Positions 1,782 through 59,000 of a DNA stretch of 64,000 nt are shown piece by piece. Each line of letters begins with the position of its first letter. The first letter of the stretch is position 1. Source of the stretch: Squalus acanthias (Eukaryota); the NCBI GenBank assembly GCA_030390025.1, contig CM059431.1, positions 127,970,001 through 128,034,000 of the forward strand, in the 5' to 3' direction. The translations under genes and the position numbers were made by a program. The notes beneath the pieces were generated by a model. That model was not told where the DNA came from, did not search any database, and was given only the letters and a program-made list of their open reading frames with translations.

Positions 1782-2583
1782 CTTAGTAGCAGTGTTCAAC
1801 ATAGCTGTTTAGTTATGTTCAAAGAAATCTGTGTGTGGATCCATGTATACAGAATAAAAGTAACAAGCAGAAAATTTTAAGTACATATGGGGAACATCTT
1901 TATGATTTTTCTAAAAATACCAAGCAGAGGAAACTTCCATGAATCAATTTACAGTGACACTATAGTGACCAGAGCAATATTTATCTATCGGTAGGAAATT
2001 TAACAGAAATGGCCAAGTTGCAGCAAATTTTTGTTTTGAATATTGCTACACTGAATTGAAATTGGTACAACTTGTTAATATTGAGAGAAGGGAATAGGAA
2101 GGGTCTAGTGTGTGACTGCACTATTGGAGTCATTCAACTTTCCATTACCAGATTCTGCCACGTGCAATTATGTTTTTAGAACTGACAAATTTGAAAAGAA
2201 AACCGTCTACGGAGCTATTGCTAAATTAATCTAGGCAACTGACTCCAAATTCCCAGCATTTCTTTTAAAAAAGCTGAGTTGTTTCCTGTGCTATCTAAAC
2301 CAGCAGAAAAAAGTATAATAAATTAAAATAGAAAAAAGTCTACATATCATCAAGGCTTCTTAAAATAATCTTCTGACATATGAATGCTGATACATAAAGC
2401 TCAGCTTGAGACTGGCCAAGTAACCTTGGTGTATTAAGTCAAAGTGAAAACCATGGTCAAATATCTTTTTTGCTGAATAAAATAACAAAAGAGACATTTG
2501 ATATTTGTGCCTTGAAAAAATAATTAATATTGCATTGTTGGAGTGGATTTAAACATGATTCCAAATTTTTTTCTGGTTTCTAT

Positions 2584-4008
2584 GGGGGCGATTTTCTGAG
2601 GCCCTTGGCGGCAGAAAGGTGGGAAAATTGGAAAAAATGAGTGCGGGTTCAGAACCCGCCTCCAACGCGCCTCCACGGGATTTTGCCTGTGCCGGTTTTG
2701 CAGGGCAGGAAACAATCCCGCCTCAAGCTGGCCAGAGAGGTTGTTAAGAGGCTTAAATGCTCATTAAGGGCCTTTCTAAGCTTATTTTGAGAAGCCCTCG
2801 TTATTTTTCGACCACTTCGGCGTGTCCCACGACCCTCCTGAACCACGCCAGCTAAACCTGGCGGGTTGCCAAATGGATGGTCTCCTCACAGCTGCAGGTC
2901 CAACATTAAATCGAAGATTTCATCAGGGATTAGTTGCAGGCGGCAGAACTTTGCTTAAAAAGGTCTTTCCGCACTTTTAGCAGGCCTTCCAAAGTCGGAG
3001 GTGCTGCAGCTTTTATCTATCAACTGTGGGACCTCCTTGGAAGACCTTCTCCCCACTTGCAATGAACGCTTCCCCAACGGAGGCATCTGCAAGCAGCATG
3101 GGAACCATTCATTTTCTTTCACCATGGACCTCAGATTCGGATAAGGAGCAGCCACGGCAGCAGCAGAACCAGGCAGCTCAGCAGCAACAGCAGCAGGAGC
3201 CCAAACCTCCTGCTCAGCCACCTGATGGTGCACAGGGCAGAAGGCGCCAGCGCATCGAGGCAGCTCGCCGCAGGAGATACCCCGACAGAGGGTTTACAGA
3301 CAGAGGATGAGCTACCTCAACATGAGTGAGCAGCAGTGCCAAAGGAGGCTGAGACTTTCGCGAGAGGTTGTCCGAGAGATCTGCGGACTGCTGCAGCAAG
3401 ACCTGGTGCCCAGCGGAACGGGTGGACAACCCTTACCAGTGGCTGTCAAAGTCACCACTGCACTCAACTTCTTTGTCTCAGGCTCCTTCCAGAAATCATC
3501 AGCAGACATCAGTGACATCTCCCAGTCGGCCGCCCACAGTTGCATCACGCAGGTTACCGATGCCCTTTTTGCTAAGGCCCAGAATTACTTCCAGTTCTCA
3601 AGGGATCATGCAAGTATAGCCACGCGTTCGGTTGGCTTTGCAAATATGGCAGGCATGCCAATGGTGCAGGGCGTCATAGACTGCACACATGTGGCCCTTA
3701 GGGCACCCCATCACAACCCAGCTATCTTTGTCAACCGAAAGGGCTTCCACTTCCTCAACATACAGCTGGTGTGTAACCACAAGAAGGAGTTTTTGCACGT
3801 TTGCGCCAAGTTCTGTGGTAGTTGCCATGACTCTTTCATCCTGCGGCACTCTAGTGTTCCTCCGTTTTTCAATCCGCCAAACCAACTTAACAGATGTCTC
3901 CTTGGTGAAGAATTCGCTAATGACGCCAATCAGGAGGCCAGCTAATGAGGCTGAAGAACGCTACAATGCCAGCCACACTTCGACCAGGTCCATCATCGAG
4001 CAAACCAA
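2584..4008 (+). mobile_element. Truncated PIF/Harbinger transposon (left end plus transposase)
   Basis: Begins tat|GGGGGCGATTTT like other Harbinger ends here; no right end found. Confidence 0.8.
3062..4008 (+). pseudogene. HARBI1-like DDE transposase, frameshifted
   Basis: ORF 3307-3945 with [44 protein letters not shown] in a shifted frame. Confidence 0.9.
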
Positions 4009-9075: not shown

Positions 9076-9077
9076 CT

Positions 9078-9927
9078 TTTTATTTATTTATTTATTCACG
9101 GGATGTGGGCATCACTGGGAAGGCCAGCATTTATCTCCCACCCCTAATTGCCCTTCAGAAGGTGATGGTGAGCCTCCTTCTGGAACCACTGCAGTCCGTG
9201 TGGTGAAGGTACTCCCACAGTGCTGTTAGATAGGGAGTTCCAGGATTTTGACCCAGCGACGATGAAGGAATGGTGATATATTTCCAAGTCAGGGTGGTAT
9301 GTGACTTGGAGGGGAACTTGGAGGTGGTGATGTTCCTATGCGCCTGCTGCCCTTGTCCTTCTAGTTGGTAGAGCTCATGGGTTTGGGAGGTGCTGCCGAA
9401 GAAGCCTTGCTGAGTTGCTGCAGTGCATCTTGCAGACATGGTGCGCCGGTGGTGGAGGGAGTGAATGTTTAAGGTGGTGGATGAAGTGCCAATCAAGCAG
9501 GCTGCTTTGTCCTGGATGGTGTTAAGCTTCTCGAGTATTGTTGGAGTTGCACTCATCCAGGCAAGTGGAGAGTATTCCATCATACTCCTTACTTGTGCCT
9601 TGTAGATGTTGGAAAGGCTTTGGAAAGGCTTTGAGGAGTCAGGAGGTGAGACACTCACCGCAGAATACCTAGCCTCTGACCTGCTCTTGTTGCCACAGTA
9701 TTTATGTGGCTGGTCCAGTTAAGTTTCTTGTCAATGGTGACCCCCAGGATGTTGATGGTGGGCGATTTGGCGATGGTAATGCCGTTGAATGTCAAGGGGC
9801 GGTGGTTAGACTCTCGCTTGTTGGAGATAGTCATTGCCTGGCACTTCTGTGGCGCGAATGTTACCTGCCACTTATCAGCCCAAGCCTGAACGTCATCCAG
9901 GTCTTGTTGTATGCGGGCATGAAACTG
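9078..9927 (-). mobile_element. 5'-truncated copy of the tRNA-headed CR1-group LINE
   Basis: ORFs 9155-9658 and 9655-9933 (WADKWQVTFAPQKC, LGVTIDKKLNWTSH). Confidence 0.85.
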
Positions 9928-28679: not shown

Positions 28680-28879
28680 AGGACGGCAAATTTCCTTCCC
28701 TACAGGACATTAGTGAACCAGATGGGTTTTTACAATAATCAGGTAGTTAGTTATATGGTCACCATTACTGATGCTAGCTTTTTAAAAACCAGATTTATTT
28801 TACTGAATTTAAATCCATGGTGGGATTTGAACTACTTGTCTTTGGATTACTAGTCCAGTAACATTACCACTATGCTACC
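28680..28879 (-). mobile_element. tRNA-derived head and body homologous to the 5' end of the 49482-52732 LINE
   Basis: A box TAGCATAGTGG, B box GTTCAAATC; body matches 52520-52732. Confidence 0.75.
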
Positions 28880-29329
28880 ATTCCCATCATCTCAAACTAA
28901 ACTAAATGAAAAAACAGAAAGCTTGTATATTCCTTTTATCCATGGAGATTCACCACTAACAACTTTGAAAATTTTCTGCAAAGGCAATAGACATGTGAGG
29001 CGTGAAATTGGGTATCGCCCCTTTTGGGGCGCTAAATTTTGAAATATTGAAAATTTAGCGCCAGGCGCTAAGGATTCTGAACTTCTAGTAAATTGGGTGT
29101 GAGCGCCCCAGGAAAGAAGTGGGGAGCTAAATCAAGCTCTAATGACCTCAGTGGGGCGCTACAGGGGCGTTAGCCGCTGAGCGCTAATGAATTTCAGGCG
29201 CAATGCATTCAGCTATGATCCTTCACATTGGTTCCTTCCAGCTCTTAAAGGGGAGGTTGCATCATTGTGCAGATGCTCATTTTCATCATTGCTGGCTTTG
29301 AGGTGACCTGCGAGCAAGTGAATTCCCTG

Positions 29330-31386: not shown

Positions 31387-33063
31387 TCACTGGAAACAAC
31401 GTCTGATGAGGCGATCATGGACCGACCTTGCAGAATGCCGATTGAGTGGCTGCCTCCTCCGTCACTGCTGTTCGTTCTCCTGTTCCTCTTGCTCCTCGGC
31501 CTCCTCCTCCTGAGGTGGTGGAGTTATGCCTGGTGGCAATGGCTGCGCCCTCATAATGGCCAAGTTGTGCAGCATGCAGCAGACGACGACGAAAAGGGAC
31601 ACCCACTCAGCCGAGCACTGGAGGGCTCCTCCCGAGAGGTCAAGGCAGCAGAACCATTGCTTGAGCACCCCGATGATCTGCTCGATGATGTTCCTGGTGG
31701 CAGCATGGCTGTCATTATATGAGTGCTGGCTAGGAGTGTTGGGGTTGCAGAGGGGAGTCATGAGCCAGGTGGAGAACAGATAGCCCTTGTCTCCCAGTAG
31801 CCAACTGCAAGCTTGGTGTGGTGGCTGGAACAGAGCTGGTACACCGGTCTGGCACAGGATGAAGGCATCATGGCTGCTGCCAGGATAGCGAGCATTGACG
31901 TTCAGGATTCACTGTGTGTGGTCGCACACCAACTGCACATTAAGTGAGTGGTAGCCTTTGCGGTTATGGAATACCTCAGGATTGTTATGAGGTGCCCGCA
32001 AAGTGATGTGGGTGCAGTCAATGGCACCCTGCATCCTGGCAAAGCCACATGCACGCTGGCGTTGCTCTCTCTGGTCATGGGAAAAGAAATGTAGTCCCTT
32101 CTCCTTCTGTACAGAGCATCTGTGACCTCGCGGATGGAGCAATGGATGGCAAACTGGGAGATGTTGGAGATGTCTCCTGTCGCACAATAGAATGATCCTT
32201 GTGCATGAAACACAAAAAGTTAGCATGCAGGTACAGCAAGTAATCAAAAAGGCAATTGGAATGTTGGCCTTTATTTCAATGGGGTTGGAGTATAAAAACA
32301 GGGAAATCCTGCTACAACTGTACAGGGTATTGGTGAGACCACACCTTGAGTACTGTGTACAGTTTTGGTCTCCTAATTTAAGGAAGGATATACTTGCATT
32401 GGAGGCAGTTCAGAGACGATTCAGTAGGTTAATTCCAGAGATGAGGGGGTTGACTTATGAGGAAGGTTTGAGCAGGCTGGGCCTATACTCATTGGAATTT
32501 AGAAGAATGAGAGGTGATCTTATTGAAACACATAAGATACTGAGGGGGCTCGACAAGGTAGATGCAGAGAGGATGTTTCCCCTCGTGGGGAAATCTGGAA
32601 CGCGGGGGAACAGTTTTAGAATAAAGGGTCGCCCTTTTAGAACTGAGATGAGGAGGAATTTCTTCTCTCAGAGGGTCGTAAATCTGTGGAATTCTCTGCC
32701 CCAGAGAGCTGTGGAGGCTGGGTCATTAAATACATTTAAGGTGGAGATAGACAGATAATTGCAAGATAAGGGAGTGAAGGGTTATGGGGAGCGGGCGGGA
32801 AGTGGCTTTGAGCCCAAGATCAGCCATGTTCTTATGTTCTTATGATCCACTGGCATAGAAATTGAGGGTGACGGTGACCTTGACTGCCACTGAGAGAGCC
32901 GTGGTTGTCCTGATCTGAGGCTCGAAGTCTTGTTGCAGGAGGTGACAGAGTTCTGTGACCATGTCCTTGCTGAAGCGGAGCCTTCTAACACACAGTGAAA
33001 TTCATGTAGGAGATCTGCTGCCGGAATACCGAGGGTGAGGTCCAGTTCCAGTACAGCCCCCAT
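31387..33063 (-). pseudogene. Harbinger DDE transposase interrupted by CR1
   Basis: MGAVL start; GAIDCTH, NRKGYHSLNVQLVCD, TRNIIEQIIGVLK, CCMLHNL. Confidence 0.9.
32199..32841 (+). mobile_element. CR1 3' fragment
   Basis: ORF 32192-32758; TSD ATGATCC at 32192-32198 and 32842-32848. Confidence 0.92.
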
Positions 33064-48066: not shown

Positions 48067-49481
48067 TTATCTTCCTTTGTTTTTCTATTTTCCTATAATC
48101 TTCAGACCAAGCCAAAGCTGTCAGCATCTAATCCTGATTTACCCCATCTTCTACCATACACTTTTCAAACTTGATGGTTCCCTGCACTATAGACATAGAA
48201 AACATAGGAACATAGGAACAGGAGCAGGCCATTTAGCCCCTCGAGGGTGTCCCACCATTCAATGAGATCATGGCTGATCTGCATCCTAACTCCATACATC
48301 CGCCTTTGTCCCATGTCCCTTAATACCTTTAGTTAACAAAAAGCTATGAATCTCAGATTTAAAATGAACAATTGATCGAAAATCAACTGCTGTTTGCGGG
48401 AGAGAGTTCCAAACTTCTACCAGCCTTTGTGTGTAGAAGTGTTTCCTAATATCACTCCTGAAAGATCTGGCTCTAATTTTTAGACTATGTCCCCTAGTCC
48501 TAGAACCCCAATCCAGCGGAAATCGTTTCTCTCTAACTACCCTATCTGTTCCCCTTAATATCTTGAAAACTTCCATCAAATCACCCCCTTAACCTTCTAA
48601 ATTCCAAGGAATACAACCATAATTTGTGTAATCTCTCCTTGTAATTTAACCCTTGGAGTCAAGGGCAAGAAATTGGGCTCGCTAGCACCCATTTTTTGGG
48701 TGCTACAAATGTCTTAGAGCTGCAAAATGGTGTCCGCAGCACATGCGCACACTTATGATGTGAAGCGCGCTGGACGCTATCTTGGTGCAGGCATTAGCTT
48801 GCACGCTGGAAGTATACAGAGCAGGCAGATCATGACTTCAAGCAGCGTGCAACGCTGGTTGACGCCAGCACTGCTATTTTGGAGCTCAATGTTCCAGCTG
48901 ATGCCCTCTCTTAAGCTGACAAAGCTGAACACACGTTAAGCAGCAGGAAGGACCCCCACCAGCGCTATTTAAAGGGATCATCAACTACTGACAGGCTAGT
49001 TGCTGATTGATTTCTTCTGGCTGTTGCCACAATTCTACACATTTTTGGTGCATTTCATACTTGTTTCAAGTATCAAATGTCTACAGAGAATGGTGTGGCA
49101 AGTGCTTAAGTCCATTTTGCTGACTTCAATGCTTCTGCACAAATCAGTTTCTCCCAGACATCGGTGTATCAGTAGGCCTTCCTCTTAGAGCATGTCTAGG
49201 AGAATGAGCAGAGGTCACGCAGATTAGGACAAGCTTCTAGAAGAGGGAGGAGGAGAAGAGGGAGAAGGGCTCTCAACAGGAGGTCATATCCACCCAGGGT
49301 CTTCAGGGAGTTATTCTCCGACTGGAGCCTCAGCGAGGAACAGTGTGTGAGACATCTGCACTTCACTAAGGAGGGTCTCAATGAAATCTACCAACTGCTG
49401 CAGCTACAACTGCAACCTCAGAGGAGGGCAAGGACCGCATTGCCAGTGACTGTGAAGGTGACAGTGGTGAGTAACTTTTAT

Positions 49482-52400
49482 TTTTTTTTATATTAGTTCA
49501 TGGGATGTGGGCATCACTGGCAAGGCCATGCATTTATTGCCCATCCCTAATTGCCCTTGAGAAGGTGGTGGTGAGCTGCCTTCTTGAACCGCTGCAGTCC
49601 GTGTGGTGAAGGTACTCCCACAGTGCTGTTAGGGAGGGAGTTCCAAGATTTTGACCCAGCGACGATGAAGGAACGCCGATATACTTCCAAGTCAGAATGG
49701 TGTGTGACTTGTAGGTTAACTTGGAGGTGCTGGTGTTCCCATGCGCCTGCTGCCCTTGTCCTTCTAGGTGGAAGAGGTCGCAGGTTTGGGAGGTGCTGCT
49801 GAAGAAGCCTTGGCAAGTTGCTGCAGTGCATCTTGTAGATGGTACACACTGCAGCAACGGTACGCCGGTGGTGGAGGGAGTGAATGTTTAAGGTGGTGGA
49901 TGGGGTGCCAATCAAGCGGCCTGCTTGGTTCTGGATGTTGTCGAGCTACTTGAGTGTTGTTGGAGCTGCACTCATCCAGGCAAGTGGAGAGTATTCCATC
50001 ACACTCCTGACTTGTGCCTTTTTGATGGTGGAAAGGCTTTGGGGAGTCAGGAGGTGAGACACTCGCCACAGAATACCCAGCCGCTAACCTGCTCTTGTTG
50101 CCACAATATTTATGTGGCTGGTCCAGTTACGTTTCTGGTCAATGGTGACCCCCAGGATGTTGATGGTGGGGGATTCGGCAATGGTAATGCCGTTGAATGT
50201 CAAGGGGCGGTGGTTAGACTCTCGCTTGTTGGAGATAGTCATTGCCTGACACGTGTGTGGTGCAAATGTTACCTGCCACTTACCTGAACATTGTCCAGGT
50301 CTTGGTGCATGCAGGCACGGACGGCTTCATTATCAGAGGAGTTGTGAATGGCACTGAACACTGTGCAGTCATCAGCGAACATCCACATTTCTGACCTTAT
50401 GTTGGAGGGAAGGTCATTGATGAAGCAGCTGAAGATGGTTGGGCCTAGGACACTGCCCTGAGAAACTACTGCAGCGATGTCCTGGGGCTGTGATGATTCA
50501 CCTTCAACCACCACAACCATCTTCCTTTGTGCTAGGTATGACTCCAGCCAGTGAAGAGTTTTCTCCCCCTGATTCCCATTGACTTCAGTTTTACTGGGGC
50601 TCCTTGATGCCACACCTGGTCAAATGCTGTCTTGATGTCAAGGGCAGTCATTCTCACCTCACCTCTGGAATTCAGCTCCTTTGTCCATGTTTGGACCAAG
50701 GCTGTAATGAGGTCGGGAGCCAAGTGGTCTTGGCGGAACCTAAACTGGGCATCAGTGAGCAGGTTATTGGTGAATAAGTGCCACTTGATAGCACTGTCGA
50801 TGGCACCTTCCATCACTTTGCCGATGATTGAGAGTAGTCTGATGGGTCGGTAATTGGCCGGATTGGATTTGTCCTGCTTTTTGTGGACTGGACATACCTG
50901 GGTAGTTTTCCACTTTGTTAGATAGATGCCAATGTTGTAGCTGTATTGGAACAGCTTGGCTAGATGCACGGCTAGTTCTGGAGCACAAGTCTTTAGCACA
51001 ACAGCCGGAATGTTGTCGGGGCCAATAGCCTTTGCTGTATCCAGTGCGCTCAGCCATTTCTTGATATCTCATGGAGTGAATCAAATTGGCTGAAGATTGG
51101 CTTCTGTGATGGTAGGAACCACAGGAGTAGGCCGATATGGATCATCTACTCGGCACTTCTGGCTGAAGATGGTTGCAAACGCTTCAGTCTTGTCTTTTGC
51201 ACTCATGTGCTGGGCTCCACCATCATTGAGGATGGGAATATTCATGGAGCCTCCTCCTCCCGTTAGTTGTTTAATGTTCCACCACCATTCACGACTGGAT
51301 GTGGCAGGACTTCAGAGCTTTGATCTGATCCGTTGATTGTGGGATCGCTCAGCCCTGTCTATATCATGCTGCTTCCGCTTTTTAGCATGCATGTTGTCCT
51401 GTGTTGCAGCTTCCCCAGGTTGGCACCTCATTTTTAGGTATGCCTGGTGCTGCTCCTGGCATGCTCTTCTACACACCTTATTGAACCAGGGTTGGTCCCG
51501 TGGCTTGATGGTAAAGGTAGAATGAGGGATATGCCAGGCCATGAGGTTACAGATTGTGGTGGAATACAATTCTGCTGCTGCTGATGGCCCACAGCGCCTC
51601 ATGGATGCCCAGTTTTGAGCTGCTAGATCTGTTCTGAATCTATCCCATTGCCACACAACATGATCGATGGTGTCCTCAGTGTGAAGACGGGACTTCGTCC
51701 CCACAATGACTGTGCGGTGGTCATGGACAGATGCATCATCGACAGGTAGATTGGTGAGGACGAGGTCAAATAGGTTTTGCCCTTGTGTTGGTTCTCTCAC
51801 CACCTGTCGCAGGCCCAGCTTGGCAGCTATGTCCTTCAGGACTCGGCCAGCTCAGTCAGTAGTGCTGCTACTGAGCCACTCTTGGTGATGGACATTGAAG
51901 TCCCCCACCCAGAGAACATTCTGTGCCCTTTGCTACTCTCAGTGCTTCTTCCAAGTGGTGTTCAACATGGAGGAGTACTGATTCAGCAGCTGAGCGAGGG
52001 CGGTAGGTGGTAATCAGCAGGAGGTTTCCTTGCCCATGCTTGACCTGAAGCCATGAGACTTCATGGGGTCCGGAGTCAATGTTGATGACTCCCAGGGCCA
52101 CTCCTTCCCGACTGTATACCACTGTGCCGCCACCCCTGTTGGGTTTGTCCTGCTGGTGGGACAGGACATACCCAGGGATGGTGATGGAGGAGTTTGGGAC
52201 ATTGGCTGAAAGGTATGATCCTATGAGTATGACTATGTCAGGCTGTTGCTTGATTAGTCTGTGGGACAGCTCTCCCAATTTTGGCACAAGTCCCCAGATG
52301 TTGGTGAGGAGGACTGTGCAGGATCGACTGGGTTGGGTGTGCCATTGTTGTGTCCGTAGCCAGTGCCGAGGTCGATGCCGGGTGATCCGTCCAGTTTTAT

Positions 52401-52732
52401 TCTTATTATCGTGTTTCGTAGCGGTTTGTTACAACTGAGTGGCTTGCTAGGCCATTTCAGAGGGAAGTTAAGAGTCAACCACTTTGCTGTGGGTCTGGAG
52501 TCACATATAGACCAGGTAAGGATGGCAGATTTCCTTCCCTGAAGGACATTAGTGAACCAGAACGATAATCTGATTATTTCATGGTTACCATTACTGAACT
52601 AGCTTTTTATTCCAGATTTATTTAATTAACTGAATTTAAATTCCCCAGCTGCCGTGGTGGGATTTGAACTCACGTCTCTGGATCATTAATCCAGGCCTCT
52701 AGATTACTAGTCCAGTAGCATTACCACTACGC
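49482..52732 (-). mobile_element. Essentially full-length single-ORF LINE (APE+RT, CR1-group/Zenon-like) with tRNA-derived 5' head
   Basis: APE (LLTNIWGL, PDIVIL, RGGGTVVY, DLVLTN), RT (NYRPI, DIKTAFD, QGSVLGP, FADD), A-rich tail; TTAT on both flanks. Confidence 0.9.
52649..52732 (-). promoter_or_regulatory. tRNA-like type 2 Pol III internal promoter
   Basis: GCGTAGTGG (A box, 5'-clipped), GAGTTCAAATCC (B box), CACGGCA acceptor-like end. Confidence 0.75.
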
Positions 52733-52971
52733 TTATGTGTCTGGCTCCTTATTGAAGATATTAGCAAAATCTCACAGTTTGCCATCTACTGTTGCACAAG
52801 GGAGGTCACTGAGTCTCTCTATTCAAAGGGAGCTAACATAATTTCATTCTCTCTTGCTAGAGACAATCAGGTAGAAGTGAGCCAAGGGTTTGCTAGGATT
52901 GCATGCTTCCCCATGGTGCAGGGAGCCATTGACTGCACATACATTGCCAACTCTGCAATGTACCGGAACTG

Positions 52972-53374
52972 AAAGAAAGAAAGAATTACATTTATATAGC
53001 GCCTTTCACGACCACTGGATGTGCCAAAGCGCTTTAAAGCCAATGAAGTACTTTTTTTTTGGAGTGTAGTCACTGTTGTAATGTAGGAAACACGGCAGCC
53101 AATTTACGCACAGCAAGCTCCCACAAACAGCAATGTGATAATGACCAGATAATCAGTTTTAGCAATGTTCATTGAGGGATAAATATTGGCTCGGACACCG
53201 GGGAGAACTCCTCTGCTCTTCTTCTAAATAGTGCCATAGGATCTTTTACGTCCACCCGAGAGAGCAGACGTGACCTCGGTTTAACGTCTCATCTGAAAGA
53301 TGGCACCTCCGACAGTGCAGCACTTGCTCAGCACTGCACTGGAGTATCTGCCTAGATTTTTGTGCTCAAGTCCC
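52972..53374 (-). mobile_element. Deu-domain SINE, 5'-truncated
   Basis: Homologous to 33892-34358; interrupts the transposase just before KGFHSL. Confidence 0.85.
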
Positions 53375-56012: not shown

Positions 56013-59000
56013 TGTAATGAACTAGGCATCTACAGTATCTATTCCACTAGCGACAACGCTAGTAGTCGTGAGAAAGGCTTCTGTACAAAACTTTTGATCA
56101 ACAAGCAATATATTGATATGTGTATCGATACGGCGGACTGCTCTATATGAGTAAGGACACATATGAGAGTAAGTTTAATCAAGTACCACTTACAAAGAGC
56201 TAGAGTTAAAAACCTACTCCAGAGAAATCCTAGAGACATGTGGACAAATGGAATGTACAGTTCAACACAATGGCCAGTCAGTAAAGCTGCCTATTATTGT
56301 AGTGAGCTACAACAACAGGCCAACTCTCATGGGCAAAGACTGGTTGAGAAAGTTACAACTCGACTGGTAAACATCTTCAGTGTAGATGCTTCAAAGAAGC
56401 GACTCGACACAATGCTGAACAAGTATGAAAGCATGTTCACAGACAGTTATGAGAGCATCACTGGGTATGACTCGCATATCTGCATCAAGTCCAGCGCGAA
56501 GACTGTCTATTGTAAGGCAAGGCCGGTCCCCTATGCGTTGAAAAGTCAGGTGGAGGAAGAGCTAGCGAAGCTCAGAGAGAATGGAGTGCTAGTAAAAACT
56601 GACAAAAGAGAATGGGCTACCCTGATTGTGGTAGTGCCCAAAGCAGACAAAACTGTACGCTTGTGCGGTGACTACAAAGTTACTACCAACCAAGCAGTTG
56701 AAAATAAGCAATACCCATTGCTTACATCATAAGATTTGTATGCAGCATTCTCTGGGTCAAAGGTTTTCTCCAAGCTTGACCTGTTGCACGCTTATGCTCA
56801 GCGTGACAAAGAGTGTCAACAGTATCTCACCATCAACACATACAAGAGTCTGTACTCATACACCAAGCTACCGTATGATGTAAAGTCCTCCCTCAAAATC
56901 TTCCAGGCTACGATGGATAAGATTTTGCAAGGAGTTCCAAATTGCTTATGCAATCAAGATGATGTGCTGATCGCAACAAGCAGCGAGGCAGAAAATCTAG
57001 AAGTGTTAGATTTAGTGCTTCAAAGGTTGAATTCCCACAATGTCAAATTGAAAAGGAGCAAAGGTGCTTTTGTGCAGCCCGAGGTTTTGTACCTTGGTCT
57101 GAAAGTTGGTGCAAATGGCTTGTAACCAGTGAAGGAAAAGGTTGATGCTATCATCAATGTTCCAAAGCCACAGAATGTGTCTGAGTTAAGATCTTTCCTT
57201 GGAATGGTCCAGTACTATGCACGTTTTCTTACCTGAGTTAGCGACCAAGTTTGCTCCATTGCACGAGCTCCTCAAGAAGGATGTCCAGTGGAAGTGGACG
57301 AAAGCGCAACAGGAAGCTTACGACGCTTGTAAGAGAAGTCTCTCTAGTGATGCTCTACTTGTGCACTACGACACAAAGCGTGAGCTTAAGTTAGCGTGTG
57401 ATGCTTCCAGCTATGGTGTGGGAGCTGTCATAAGCCTCGTAATGGATGATGGCCAAGACAATCAAATCGCGTTCGCATTTTGTTTGGAATCAATAAATTC
57501 CAACAGTTCCTGATCAGCAGAAAATTTACCCTGATAACCAATCACAAACCACTCCTAGCAATATTGGGGCCCAAATCTGCCATCCTTGCAATGTCCGCAT
57601 CAAGAATGCAACATTGGACAGTGTTGTTGTCACAATATGGCTACACGATTGAATATCACACTACAAAGAGAAACGCAATCGCAGATGTCTTGTCAAGATT
57701 GCCACATGAAGACTCGTGTGTTGGGAGTGAAGGTGCGATTTTCATGCTAGGTGCAGTTGACAAAGACTTTCCCGTGAATGCAACTGAGATTGAAGATGAG
57801 ACTCAAAAGGACTCAGTACTGAAGAGAGTGTATGAAAACACTTTGAGTAGATGGACTGATCAGTGTATGGACACAGAATTGAAACCATTCCATAACTGTT
57901 GTACTGAATTGTCTTGTGAGCAAGGTTGTATCAAATGGGGAAACAGAGTGGTGGTACCTACTTCTTTGAGAGATAGAATTCTGGCCGAACTTCATACTGA
58001 ACATCCAGGGATCGTCAGTATGAAATCAATTGCAAGAAGTTTTGTTTACTGGCTTGGATTGGACAGTGATCTTGACTCACCTGTCAGCAAATGCAGCGTT
58101 TGCCAAAATTGCAGAAACAAACCACCCAAAACTCCACTACAACCCTGGTCATGGCCAAGTAGACCTTTTCAGAGAGTACATGAATACTTCTGTGAGAAAG
58201 CAAATGATTATTTCCTGGTACTTGTAGATAGTCACTCAAAGTGGATTGAAGTGAAACACATGGGTTCAAATCTACAACTAAACGTACCATAGATGAGTTG
58301 AGGTCAATCTTTGCATGTCATGGCTTACCTGAAGAGCTTGTTTCTGACAATGGCCCTCAGTTCCATTCTGTTCTGTTCCAATAATTCATGAAACGGAACA
58401 GTATCAAACACACTCTCGCTCCACCATATCATCTAGCTTCAAACGGAGCAGCCAAAAGGTTAGTCATAATAGTGAAAGAAGCTCTCAAAAAGCAAGTTTT
58501 ACAGGGTTGTTCGGAACTCAGCATGAAGCAACGTTTGGCAAATTTCTTGCTGAAGTACAGAACTACTCCGCACATTACAACTGGACATACCCCAGCAGAG
58601 CTCTTGATGAAGTGGAGATTGAGAACATGATTGAGTCTTGTTCAACTGAATTTGGCCTCAAAACATGAACAGAAACAGTTGAGTCAGAAACGTTATTATG
58701 ACACCAATCAGAAAGAACGCAGTTTCAAACAAAATGAGTGTGTTCGTGTTCTCAGTCCCCCTGGCAAGTCGAGTTCACACAAGTGGGATGTAGGAACCAT
58801 AGTAGAGGTGGAACCAAGAGATATTTGTTTGAAATTGGTGACAAAATCCAAAGGGCTGGATTTTGATACTGGGGCAGGGCTTGGGTCGTTATCCACTTTT
58901 CGTGTTATCCACCCGACTGCAATTGGATGTGGGAGATTGATGCGATTTTCAACTAACTGGGCAATTGAGTTCCAGCATGTGGGAACCCATGACCCAATTA

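Follow-up and report, generated by a model that had tools for sequence, protein, structure and literature searches.

The element at positions 49482-52732 (minus strand) of the window, the whole 64,000-nt stretch of Squalus acanthias DNA that was analysed, is a decayed member of a non-LTR retrotransposon family of about 3.3 kb that is real and was formerly very successful. The 5' UTR of this family is a complete tRNA-derived SINE module, with an A/B-box head at the first nucleotides and a body of ~240 nt, which is followed by an endonuclease-reverse transcriptase (RT) ORF and a hairpin tail; we regard this structural part as practically certain. Because a tRNA-type promoter head is combined with a near-absence of terminator-like T-runs from the coding strand, the element may be a coding retrotransposon that RNA polymerase III (Pol III) transcribes. 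Judged from its sequence features, transcription by Pol III is the most economical reading, and we give it an even chance.

The window copy diverges by 5.1% from the majority sequence of 25 copies, and its 5' end is short by 10 nt. All of its parts lie on the minus strand. The tRNA-derived head (52645-52732) opens with the A box remnant GCGTAGTGG (52732-52724), which is short by two bases because GGGAACGGTA, the 10 nt with which the family starts, is missing from this copy. The head also contains the B box GAGTTCAAATCC (52671-52660), a 22-nt insert in the variable region and an anticodon-arm-like hairpin with the anticodon read as AGT. The non-coding leader (52429-52644) is the same as the body of the partner SINEs and closes with TAA (52431-52429) just ahead of the long frame; it may resemble the Deu domain of shark Deu-type SINEs, e.g. 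SacSINE1. The remnant of the single endonuclease-RT ORF (49547-52428), which includes the endonuclease (~51670-52300) and the RT (~50200-50875), carries frameshifts and stops and is split into at least eight frame pieces. An ATG at ~52344 was rejected as the start codon, being out of frame and a product of CpG-to-TpG decay, and by eye no -1 slippery site was seen that could link an upstream ORF of 49 codons with the main frame. In the 3' UTR (49491-49546) a long hairpin (GGGATGGGC ... GCCCACATCCC) is arranged around AATAAA (49538-49533), and the terminal T(n)A(n) tail (49482-49490) reads T1 then A9 in this copy.

The initial annotation described this locus as one insertion with a tRNA-like head and without ORF1, and both points are borne out. 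A target-site duplication TTAT is found on the plus strand on the element's 3' side (49478-49481) and 5' side (52733-52736), and the Harbinger-like host frame resumes (..VTVVSNFY / YVSGS..) across the copy. The A and B boxes are followed downstream by endonuclease (PF14529, PF03372) and RT (PF00078) domains, with no ORF1. ARAGORN called tRNAs neither in the window nor in 60 control loci, a result that is uninformative because the program also misses this head. Two further copies of the family in the window are 5'-truncated and lie on the minus strand, one at 1039-1783 (majority nt 2579-3314, 93% identity, with the tail GAATTTTAAAAA) and the other at 9077-9921 (majority nt 2470-3323, 90% identity).

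The size of the family is evident from motif counts in the genome. The endonuclease-start motif occurs in at least 12,419 places (none for the reversed-pattern control) and the ORF-start motif in 5,260 (19 for the control), and at 960 places or more a tRNA-type B box is joined to the LINE-specific start of the ORF (control, none). The 25-copy majority sequence has one open frame of 973 codons for endonuclease and RT, and Pfam recognizes the domains in two natural copies, L040 and L043 (PF14529, E = 4e-14; PF03372, E = 6e-4; PF00078, down to E = 1e-38). Insertions are dispersed, with 5' truncation, target-site duplications and a 3' tail, as in AP-endonuclease-type LINEs. All 49 best ORF matches are interrupted by stops, with 1-9 apiece, so the family may be extinct. 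The closest protein relatives, at 40-48% identity, are unnamed ORFs, 930-980 aa long and carried by 3.2-3.7-kb contigs; a separate homologue search for longer proteins gave distant relatives only (29-37% identity), and a protein-cluster search (Protein Atlas) gave generic RT clusters only. Metagenome relatives, 24-41% identical to the query and too distant for sister families, serve as a broad control set only.

Several observations place the 5' end of the family at the tRNA-derived head. The longest copies begin at GGGAACGGTAGCGTAGTGG. This start is position +1 of the tRNA, and the A box there is a consensus one, TAGCGTAGTGG, which occupies majority nt 9-19 and fits TRGCNNAGTGG perfectly, and the B box is the one found in the window copy. 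A search of the shark's own genome with head plus leader as the query gave 8605 first-look candidates, 40 of which were scored; all 39 non-self matches among these show 88-90% identity and begin within query nt 1-31. Among the 39 loci fetched by this head-based selection, 18 are full-length in a single piece and six in two pieces. The sequence GGGAACGGTA stands directly upstream of the window-equivalent start, with at most three mismatches, in 31 of these loci, and the next 10 nt further upstream are matched in none of them. When copies were selected by the ORF only (n=20), three reach nt 2, and 17 are truncated at differing leader positions with unrelated flanks. The check proposed in the initial annotation, whether full-length copies consistently start at the head, thus has a positive outcome, since the 10-nt start is common to 31/39 head-selected and 3/20 ORF-selected copies; extension past it was seen in none of the 59. 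A longer form with ORF1 was also considered and rejected, as it was found in none of the 20 ORF-selected copies; the family has no ORF1. In three full-length copies searched with Rfam at E<=1, tRNA was the sole match and no ribozyme was found. Positions 7-64 of the tRNA model match the head of sister copy L047 at 22.3 bits, which falls short of the gathering score of 29 bits, and minimum-energy folds of the head (z = -1.05 and -0.77) contain neither a cloverleaf nor an acceptor stem. In five control elements with few T4+ runs, Rfam gave no tRNA head.

The abundant partner SINEs are almost certainly internal-deletion derivatives of the tRNA-headed LINE that kept both of its ends, as judged from their collinearity. 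Exact joints of leader to tail number 1,883 in the genome, and ten fetched SINE copies fall into six junction types, being collinear with majority nt 2-326/343 plus 3171/3241 to the end. In matching short contigs from four runs (X1, X3, X9 and X18, none of them on record as RNA), the depth profile is the same, high over the leader shared with the SINEs and elsewhere increasing 3'-ward; as short contigs, they are uninformative on expression, starts and ends.

The 3' ends follow the pattern GAAT(n)A(n). The T-run has a length of 1, 2, 3, 4 and 5 in 15, 6, 4, 3 and 3 of 30 tails; 24 of the 30 have 1-3 T and six have 4-5, and AATAAA lies ~47 nt upstream of the end. Internal T-runs differ in length in 1 of 2032 cells, whereas the 3' terminus varies, and the extreme 3' end, immediately ahead of the A tail, is the sole place of a recurrent T4+ in the family. 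The 3' hairpin fold has z = -3.5 in sister copy L046 and -1.4 in L035.

The initial annotation rested much of its argument on T-runs, and here its claims fared unevenly. The minus strand of 49482-52732 (3251 nt) is indeed free of T4+, with 15 A4+, 8 C4+ and 8 G4+ runs, and neighbouring LINEs are rich in T4+ as stated (8, 4 and 9 observed vs 4.4, 4.1 and 5.4 expected, i.e. at or above expectation). The truncated copy at 1039-1783, said to lack T4+, has one T4 at its extreme 3' end (plus-strand AAAA at 1044-1047). The rough expectation of 5-6 T4+ runs is approached by base composition (4.9) and falls to only 1.5 when dinucleotides are kept. In the majority sequence, sense-strand T-runs of length 1, 2, 3 and 4+ number 474, 76, 7 and 0 (A4+ 13, C4+ 11, G4+ 9), and T4+ is absent in 17 of 25 copies. 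The probability of zero T4+ is 0.02 under a mononucleotide model, 0.23 and 0.61 under first- and second-order Markov simulations, which are our dinucleotide-aware nulls, and 0.11-0.14 under codon shuffles. The absence of T4+ by itself is therefore weak evidence, being non-significant under the dinucleotide- or codon-aware nulls, and the comparison with codon-shuffled controls suggested in the annotation yields a majority count of zero that such controls also produce at that rate.

The ORF has an observed/expected ratio for T>=3 of 0.31, whereas 47 control LINE ORFs reach 0.60 at the lowest, with a median of 1.07, and no ORF in a set of 80 controls is without any T4+. Synonymous-codon shuffling gives 11.2 expected T>=3 runs vs 5 observed (P = 0.003-0.005), a codon-context P that is not unique, as P<=0.01 is also reached in 2 of 44 control ORFs. 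Phe content is 1.8%, below that of all relatives (n=97, minimum 2.1%), and the depletion of T-runs is specific for the sense strand. As to the proposal that selection purged Pol III terminators, T>=3 runs are scarcer here than in any of the 47 controls; for T4+, a count of zero is compatible with low T content and chance (0.11-0.61).

On the Pol III reading, the A and B boxes would be bound by TFIIIC and TFIIIB, and Pol III would start at GGGAACGG or 1-2 nt earlier and traverse the full 3.3 kb, which the lack of T4+ and the scarcity of T3 runs on the sense strand would allow. The RNA would end in flanking sequence or at a terminal T-run, with a short A tail added. Being uncapped, it would be translated without a cap-scanned AUG, possibly via an in-frame ACG at codon 4, and the encoded protein would copy its own RNA, or the deleted SINE RNA, through the common 3' hairpin. 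The joint reading, to which we give somewhat less than an even chance, is that of an autonomous coding retrotransposon with genomic and messenger RNA made by Pol III, purged T-runs, A-tailing like that of T+ SINEs and uncapped non-AUG translation, the SINEs being its deletions. Several facts count against transcription by Pol III. The terminal T-run of the majority sequence is only T1-T2 and not a terminator, and AATAAA with an A tail is equally expected of a Pol II mRNA. We know of no natural 3-kb Pol III transcript, and uncapped RNAs translate poorly. Kojima, in a passage of PMC10886601, also names weak Pol III processivity as limiting such elements. That a LINE mRNA can be uncapped and made outside Pol II has a precedent in R2 (PMC6765202).

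The same tail signals, with an A run in every tail and AATAAA in the 3' UTR, would suit a Pol II LINE with a captured SINE for a 5' UTR, a reading that we consider possible and less than probable. It supposes an internal Pol II promoter at nt 1, A and B boxes that are a relic or bind TFIIIC only, and T-poverty that stems from T-poor, C-rich codon usage. It agrees with the non-significance of T4+ absence when dinucleotides or codons are kept, and with the general view of LINEs as Pol II elements in the relevant passages of PMC10886601 and PMC5786205. However, it requires a second promoter that coincides with the tRNA-type start nucleotide, and it sits poorly with the perfect A box, the strand-specific T>=3 level below all 47 controls, the position of AATAAA ~47 nt from the end and inside the hairpin, and the lack of any in-frame AUG for cap scanning.

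The poor translation of uncapped RNA, together with the Pol III-type head and the T-run poverty, could also be accommodated by a division of labour, in which uncapped full-length and SINE RNAs made by Pol III serve as templates and rare Pol II or read-through transcripts as mRNA. We think this unlikely, as the second transcript class is without support, and LINE proteins usually favour their own coding RNA (the cis-preference of L1), so that the separate mRNA would be favoured. Still less credible is a role of the tRNA-like head in 5' processing, in which RNase P would cut it to release the element from read-through host transcripts, in analogy to R2 and RTE with their HDV-like ribozymes. The 5' ends exactly at tRNA +1 and the precedent of ribozyme-processed LINEs (in parts of PMC6765202 and PMC5786205) speak for it, but we reject it for want of an acceptor stem in the head; the Rfam match is limited to model positions 7-64, the folds contain no cloverleaf, and T-run depletion would be left unexplained. 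A chance chimera of a SINE next to a 5'-truncated LINE, confined to the window locus, is effectively ruled out by B-box-to-ORF-start linkages in those 960 or more places, by the identical junction in 24 of 24 sampled full-length copies and by the one TSD pair that encloses the entire unit.

Textbook as well as specialist accounts of retroposons divide them into coding LINEs made by Pol II and non-coding SINEs made by Pol III. Kojima (2018) states that protein coding is impossible for SINEs, and Kojima (2024) that Pol II is obligatory for autonomous partners. A SINE head joined to a LINE ORF in a family of thousands of copies blurs this division. Our search of published papers found no tRNA-headed or Pol III-driven autonomous LINE, and a search with three sequence motifs of the element gave no match. 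The family provides a concrete system in which a translatable 3-kb Pol III RNA can be tested in vertebrates. It also gives a direct view of how SINEs, conserved body included, can originate via deletion from a headed LINE and not by piecemeal assembly, and overlooked small-RNA heads in LINE consensus libraries are worth checking for.

Among known systems, tRNA-derived SINEs (SINE2) have in common with the element an A/B-box head from tRNA +1, a ~240-nt body and a 3' hairpin tail. They are short (about 100-700 bp) and non-coding, whereas here a 2.9-kb endonuclease-RT ORF lies between body and tail of a 3.3-kb unit, which makes the element autonomous. Single-ORF stringent-type LINEs of the L2/CR1 group, such as ZfL2-2, Maui and L2-2_CM, are alike in having one ~970-aa endonuclease-RT ORF, no ORF1 and a structured 3' tail also present in partner SINEs, a likeness of architecture; they differ from the present element, in which a Pol III-type tRNA module forms the 5' UTR and the sense strand is poor in T-runs. 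With R2, the element would have in common an uncapped, translated LINE RNA made outside a Pol II promoter of its own, which R2 translates by an IRES-like route (part of PMC6765202). In contrast, R2 is a Pol I co-transcript with an HDV-like ribozyme, rDNA site specificity and a restriction-like endonuclease, whereas here there is no Rfam ribozyme, insertions are dispersed and the endonuclease is of the AP type. Mammalian T+ SINEs (B2, Dip, Ves), the Pol III transcripts of which are polyadenylated (PMC8466645), resemble the element in the order of AATAAA, T-run and A tail at the 3' end; they are non-coding and mobilised by L1, whereas AATAAA in our family lies ~47 nt upstream and a T-run of 4 or longer is present in 6/30 tails. 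Bipartite non-autonomous LINEs (RIME/ingi, RTE and Vingi derivatives) resemble our SINEs as short derivatives with both ends of an autonomous element (part of PMC5786205), and the Pol III-promoter TRIMs Cassandra, Helenus and Ajax also place a small-RNA promoter within a retroelement (part of PMC10886601). For both of these groups a Pol II-driven autonomous partner is assumed, whereas here it is the autonomous element that bears the Pol III-type head.

The decayed LINE on the minus strand (49482-52732; 3251 nt) begins with a tRNA-like head retaining an A-box remnant GCGTAGTGG (52732-52724) and a B box GAGTTCAAATCC (52671-52660), both read from the sequence. These are followed by a non-coding leader ending at a TAA (52431-52429), an endonuclease-RT ORF remnant that frame analysis resolves into many pieces (52428-49547), a 3' UTR with AATAAA within a hairpin, and a T1A9 tail. 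Both ends are bordered by a duplicated TTAT, and the frame of a Harbinger-like transposase resumes past the copy (..VSNFY / YVSGS..), so that the unit represents a single insertion event, as the initial annotation had proposed. The host consists of Harbinger/PIF-type transposase remnants (49200-49481 and 52733-53000, plus). Other remnants of this type, matching PF13359, lie at 3226-3945 (plus) and 31462-32409 (minus), and at 56733-58292 (plus) lies what is left of an LTR-retrotransposon pol gene, its domains being RT, RNase H and integrase zinc-binding.

No tRNA was called by ARAGORN within the window, and the Rfam tRNA model matched a sister copy's head with a score of 22.3 bits, under the 29-bit threshold, the match spanning model positions 7-64 and containing an insert of 22 nt; sub-threshold scores are usual for SINE heads. 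Searching the 3.7-Gb assembly that contains the window with head and leader yielded 8605 candidates at first look. Scores were obtained for 40, and 39 of these were non-self matches (88-90% identity, starting within query nt 1-31), and 4.1 kb was fetched at each. Alignment to the window copy from head to tail was obtained in one piece at 18 of the 39 loci and in two pieces at 6, the remaining 15 being interrupted or reaching past the fetched span. The 10-mer GGGAACGGTA stands directly 5' of GCGTAGTGG with at most three mismatches in 31/39 loci (at most one in 24/39), and the further 10 nt upstream match in 0/39; column agreement is 26-31 of 31 within the 10-mer, dropping to 9-20 of 31 upstream. 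The family thus starts at tRNA position +1, with the complete consensus A box TAGCGTAGTGG at family nt 9-19, and the window copy is, on this comparison, 5'-truncated by 10 nt. Just upstream of GGGAACGG in these head-selected loci (L031-L069), A is found at -12 in 20 of 31 copies and C at -11 in 12 of 31, a bias that may reflect either an RNA start 1-2 nt 5' of GGG or biased insertion sites.

Head-selection bias was avoided by picking 20 copies solely on whole-ORF alignment to a distant protein, P0121, and fetching the upstream 600 nt of each. Three of them reach nt 2, and the other 17 are each truncated at a position of their own (nt 17-449). The flanks upstream are mutually unrelated, so that neither a longer form nor an ORF1 exists within the 600 nt; the lack of ORF1 agrees with the initial annotation. 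Genome-wide motif counts, all lower bounds, place the endonuclease-start motif in at least 12,419 places (reversed-pattern control 0), the LINE-specific ORF-start motif in at least 5,260 (control 19), and a B box with the ORF-start motif 225-295 nt on in at least 960 (control 0), a linkage that refutes a chance SINE-LINE chimera at one locus. Four sequencing runs labelled as different organisms (X1, X3, X9 and X18) also contain contigs that resemble the family at 90% or more; the same positions differ from the family copy L032 in all four, so that the family majority is common to those runs.

The majority-rule sequence built from 25 copies, which individually diverge from it by 2.8-6.7%, contains a single 973-codon open frame without a second long sense ORF, and Pfam matches to endonuclease and RT domains occur in natural copies. 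No intact copy was found among the 49 best genome ORF matches (1-9 stops each); the master elements were coding, but the family itself may by now be extinct. The closest proteins elsewhere (40-48% identical) are encoded by ORFs of 930-980 aa, all unnamed, that come from 3.2-3.7-kb contigs. No AUG is present in the 973-codon frame ahead of codon ~286. The N-terminal M-A-T-K of a relative lies opposite T-A-T-K of the family, where in-frame codon 4 is ACG in 17/25 copies, with ATG (4) and ACA (3) as decay forms, and a 49-codon upstream ORF, read in a different frame, overlaps the ORF start (52428-52400, minus; majority nt 331-345). The ATG of the window copy was rejected as a start, being an out-of-frame CpG-to-TpG product. 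Linked changes at majority nt ~317-335 define two subfamilies (AAGCCACTC...GTAACAAACC versus AAGTCACTC...GTAACTAACC), both lacking an AUG at the ORF start.

As initially annotated, the sense strand of the window copy has no run of four or more T (T4+), compared with 15 such runs of A, 8 of C and 8 of G. The majority contains 474, 76 and 7 T-runs of length 1, 2 and 3 and none longer, and its A4+ (13), C4+ (11) and G4+ (9) runs are near expectation, indicating a strand-specific depletion. The chance of zero T4+ varies by null: for the whole majority, 4.05 runs are expected from base composition (chance of zero 0.02), 1.5 under a first-order Markov model (0.23) and 0.49 under a second-order one (0.61), and for the ORF, 1.85 by synonymous-codon shuffling (0.11) and 5.1 under unbiased synonymous choice (0.002). 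By itself, a lack of T4+ thus decides little: it may be due to low T content plus chance or to the selective purging that was initially inferred. The striking feature is that T-runs are avoided in a graded way. The ORF has 5 runs of T≥3 versus 11.2 by synonymous-codon shuffling (P = 0.003-0.005), 0/18 Phe codons adjoin a T, and the Phe content of 1.8% is under that of all 97 relatives >800 aa (minimum 2.1%, median 3.4%). With 47 unrelated metagenomic LINE ORFs (from single-ORF elements, ≥800 aa) as controls, the family has the lowest observed/expected ratio for T≥3 (0.31; control minimum 0.60, median 1.07), and ORFs devoid of T4+ number 0/47, and 0/80 in the full control set; averaged over control ratios, the chance of zero T4+ is ~0.04. 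As a counter-calibration, P≤0.01 in the codon-context test was also reached by 2/44 controls, three N-containing ones having been dropped, and the observed/shuffled ratio is 0.44 for the family and <0.6 in 0/44 controls. Three T4+-poor controls, L098, L115 and L109, have 3, 2 and 2 runs versus 10.5, 7.6 and 6.2 expected, L098 being strongly depleted in the codon-context test too; neither ARAGORN nor Rfam finds a tRNA-like head in them. In the three LINEs that neighbour the copy in the window, T4+ runs are as frequent as expected or more so. Among the 25 copies, 17 lack T4+ and the other 8 hold 13 in total, 9 scattered internally and 4 at the 3' terminus.

Tails (n=30) end in ...CCCATAAACGAAT(n)A(about 4-14), with a terminal T-run of n = 1, 2, 3, 4 and 5 in 15, 6, 4, 3 and 3 tails, and internal T-runs ≥2 changed length without substitution in 1/2032 copy-by-run cells. 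A variable terminal run beside near-constant internal ones argues that the former is remade in each retrotransposition cycle. This variation would arise if Pol III termination left U-tracts of differing length to which A residues were then added, a course described for T+ SINEs in PMC8466645; the same pattern could come from RT slippage at initiation or from Pol II cleavage within the T-tract. The tail hairpin (z = -3.5 in family copy L046, -1.4 in a more mutated copy) fits a tail that the element's own RT recognises. The window holds 3'-end stretches at 49482-49492, 1039-1060 and 9077-9110, the tail at ~9100 being (AAAT)n and not T(n)A(n).

Leader and tail motifs occur joined, within 300 nt of each other, in 1,883 places (control 0), and ten fetched SINE examples have majority nt 2-326/343 fused to 3171, 3174, 3211, 3212, 3217 or 3241 to the end, starting at nt 2-3 in 7/10; the 22-nt insert of the LINE head is present in them as well. 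That several junction types have both termini in common, some with the first LINE-specific codons, points to a repeated origin of these SINEs from the headed LINE by internal deletion. At 28680-28885 (minus) lies an older fragment of a SINE-like head and leader, 75% identical to the family, with no 22-nt insert and a longer leader, and thus the SINE lineage may predate the head of the LINE. The leader may correspond to the Deu domain of shark SINEs.

With architecture, 5' and 3' termini, coding majority, T-run poverty and SINE derivation established, it can be asked which polymerase transcribes the LINE. Because the same head occurs in thousands of SINE insertions, it was presumably an active Pol III promoter, and a full-length copy would offer Pol III no sequence stop ahead of the tail. 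Pol III, as initially proposed, is the source of the template RNA that we favour, at roughly even chances; counting against it is the weak significance of T4+ absence alone, and we know of no 3-kb Pol III transcript. The tail features are also compatible with Pol II, and its transcription of the LINE, with a captured SINE as 5' UTR, is a rather less probable reading. Use of both polymerases seems unlikely, and RNase P-type processing at the head, from which the acceptor stem is missing, very improbable. In the cited parts of Kojima 2018 (PMC5786205) and Kojima 2024 (PMC10886601), transcription by Pol II is assigned to LINEs and by Pol III to SINEs. The search of papers turned up no autonomous LINE headed by a small RNA; in Repbase or Dfam the family consensus may already be catalogued without comment. 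A LINE RNA that comes from another polymerase and is translatable without a cap is described for R2 in the cited part of PMC6765202.
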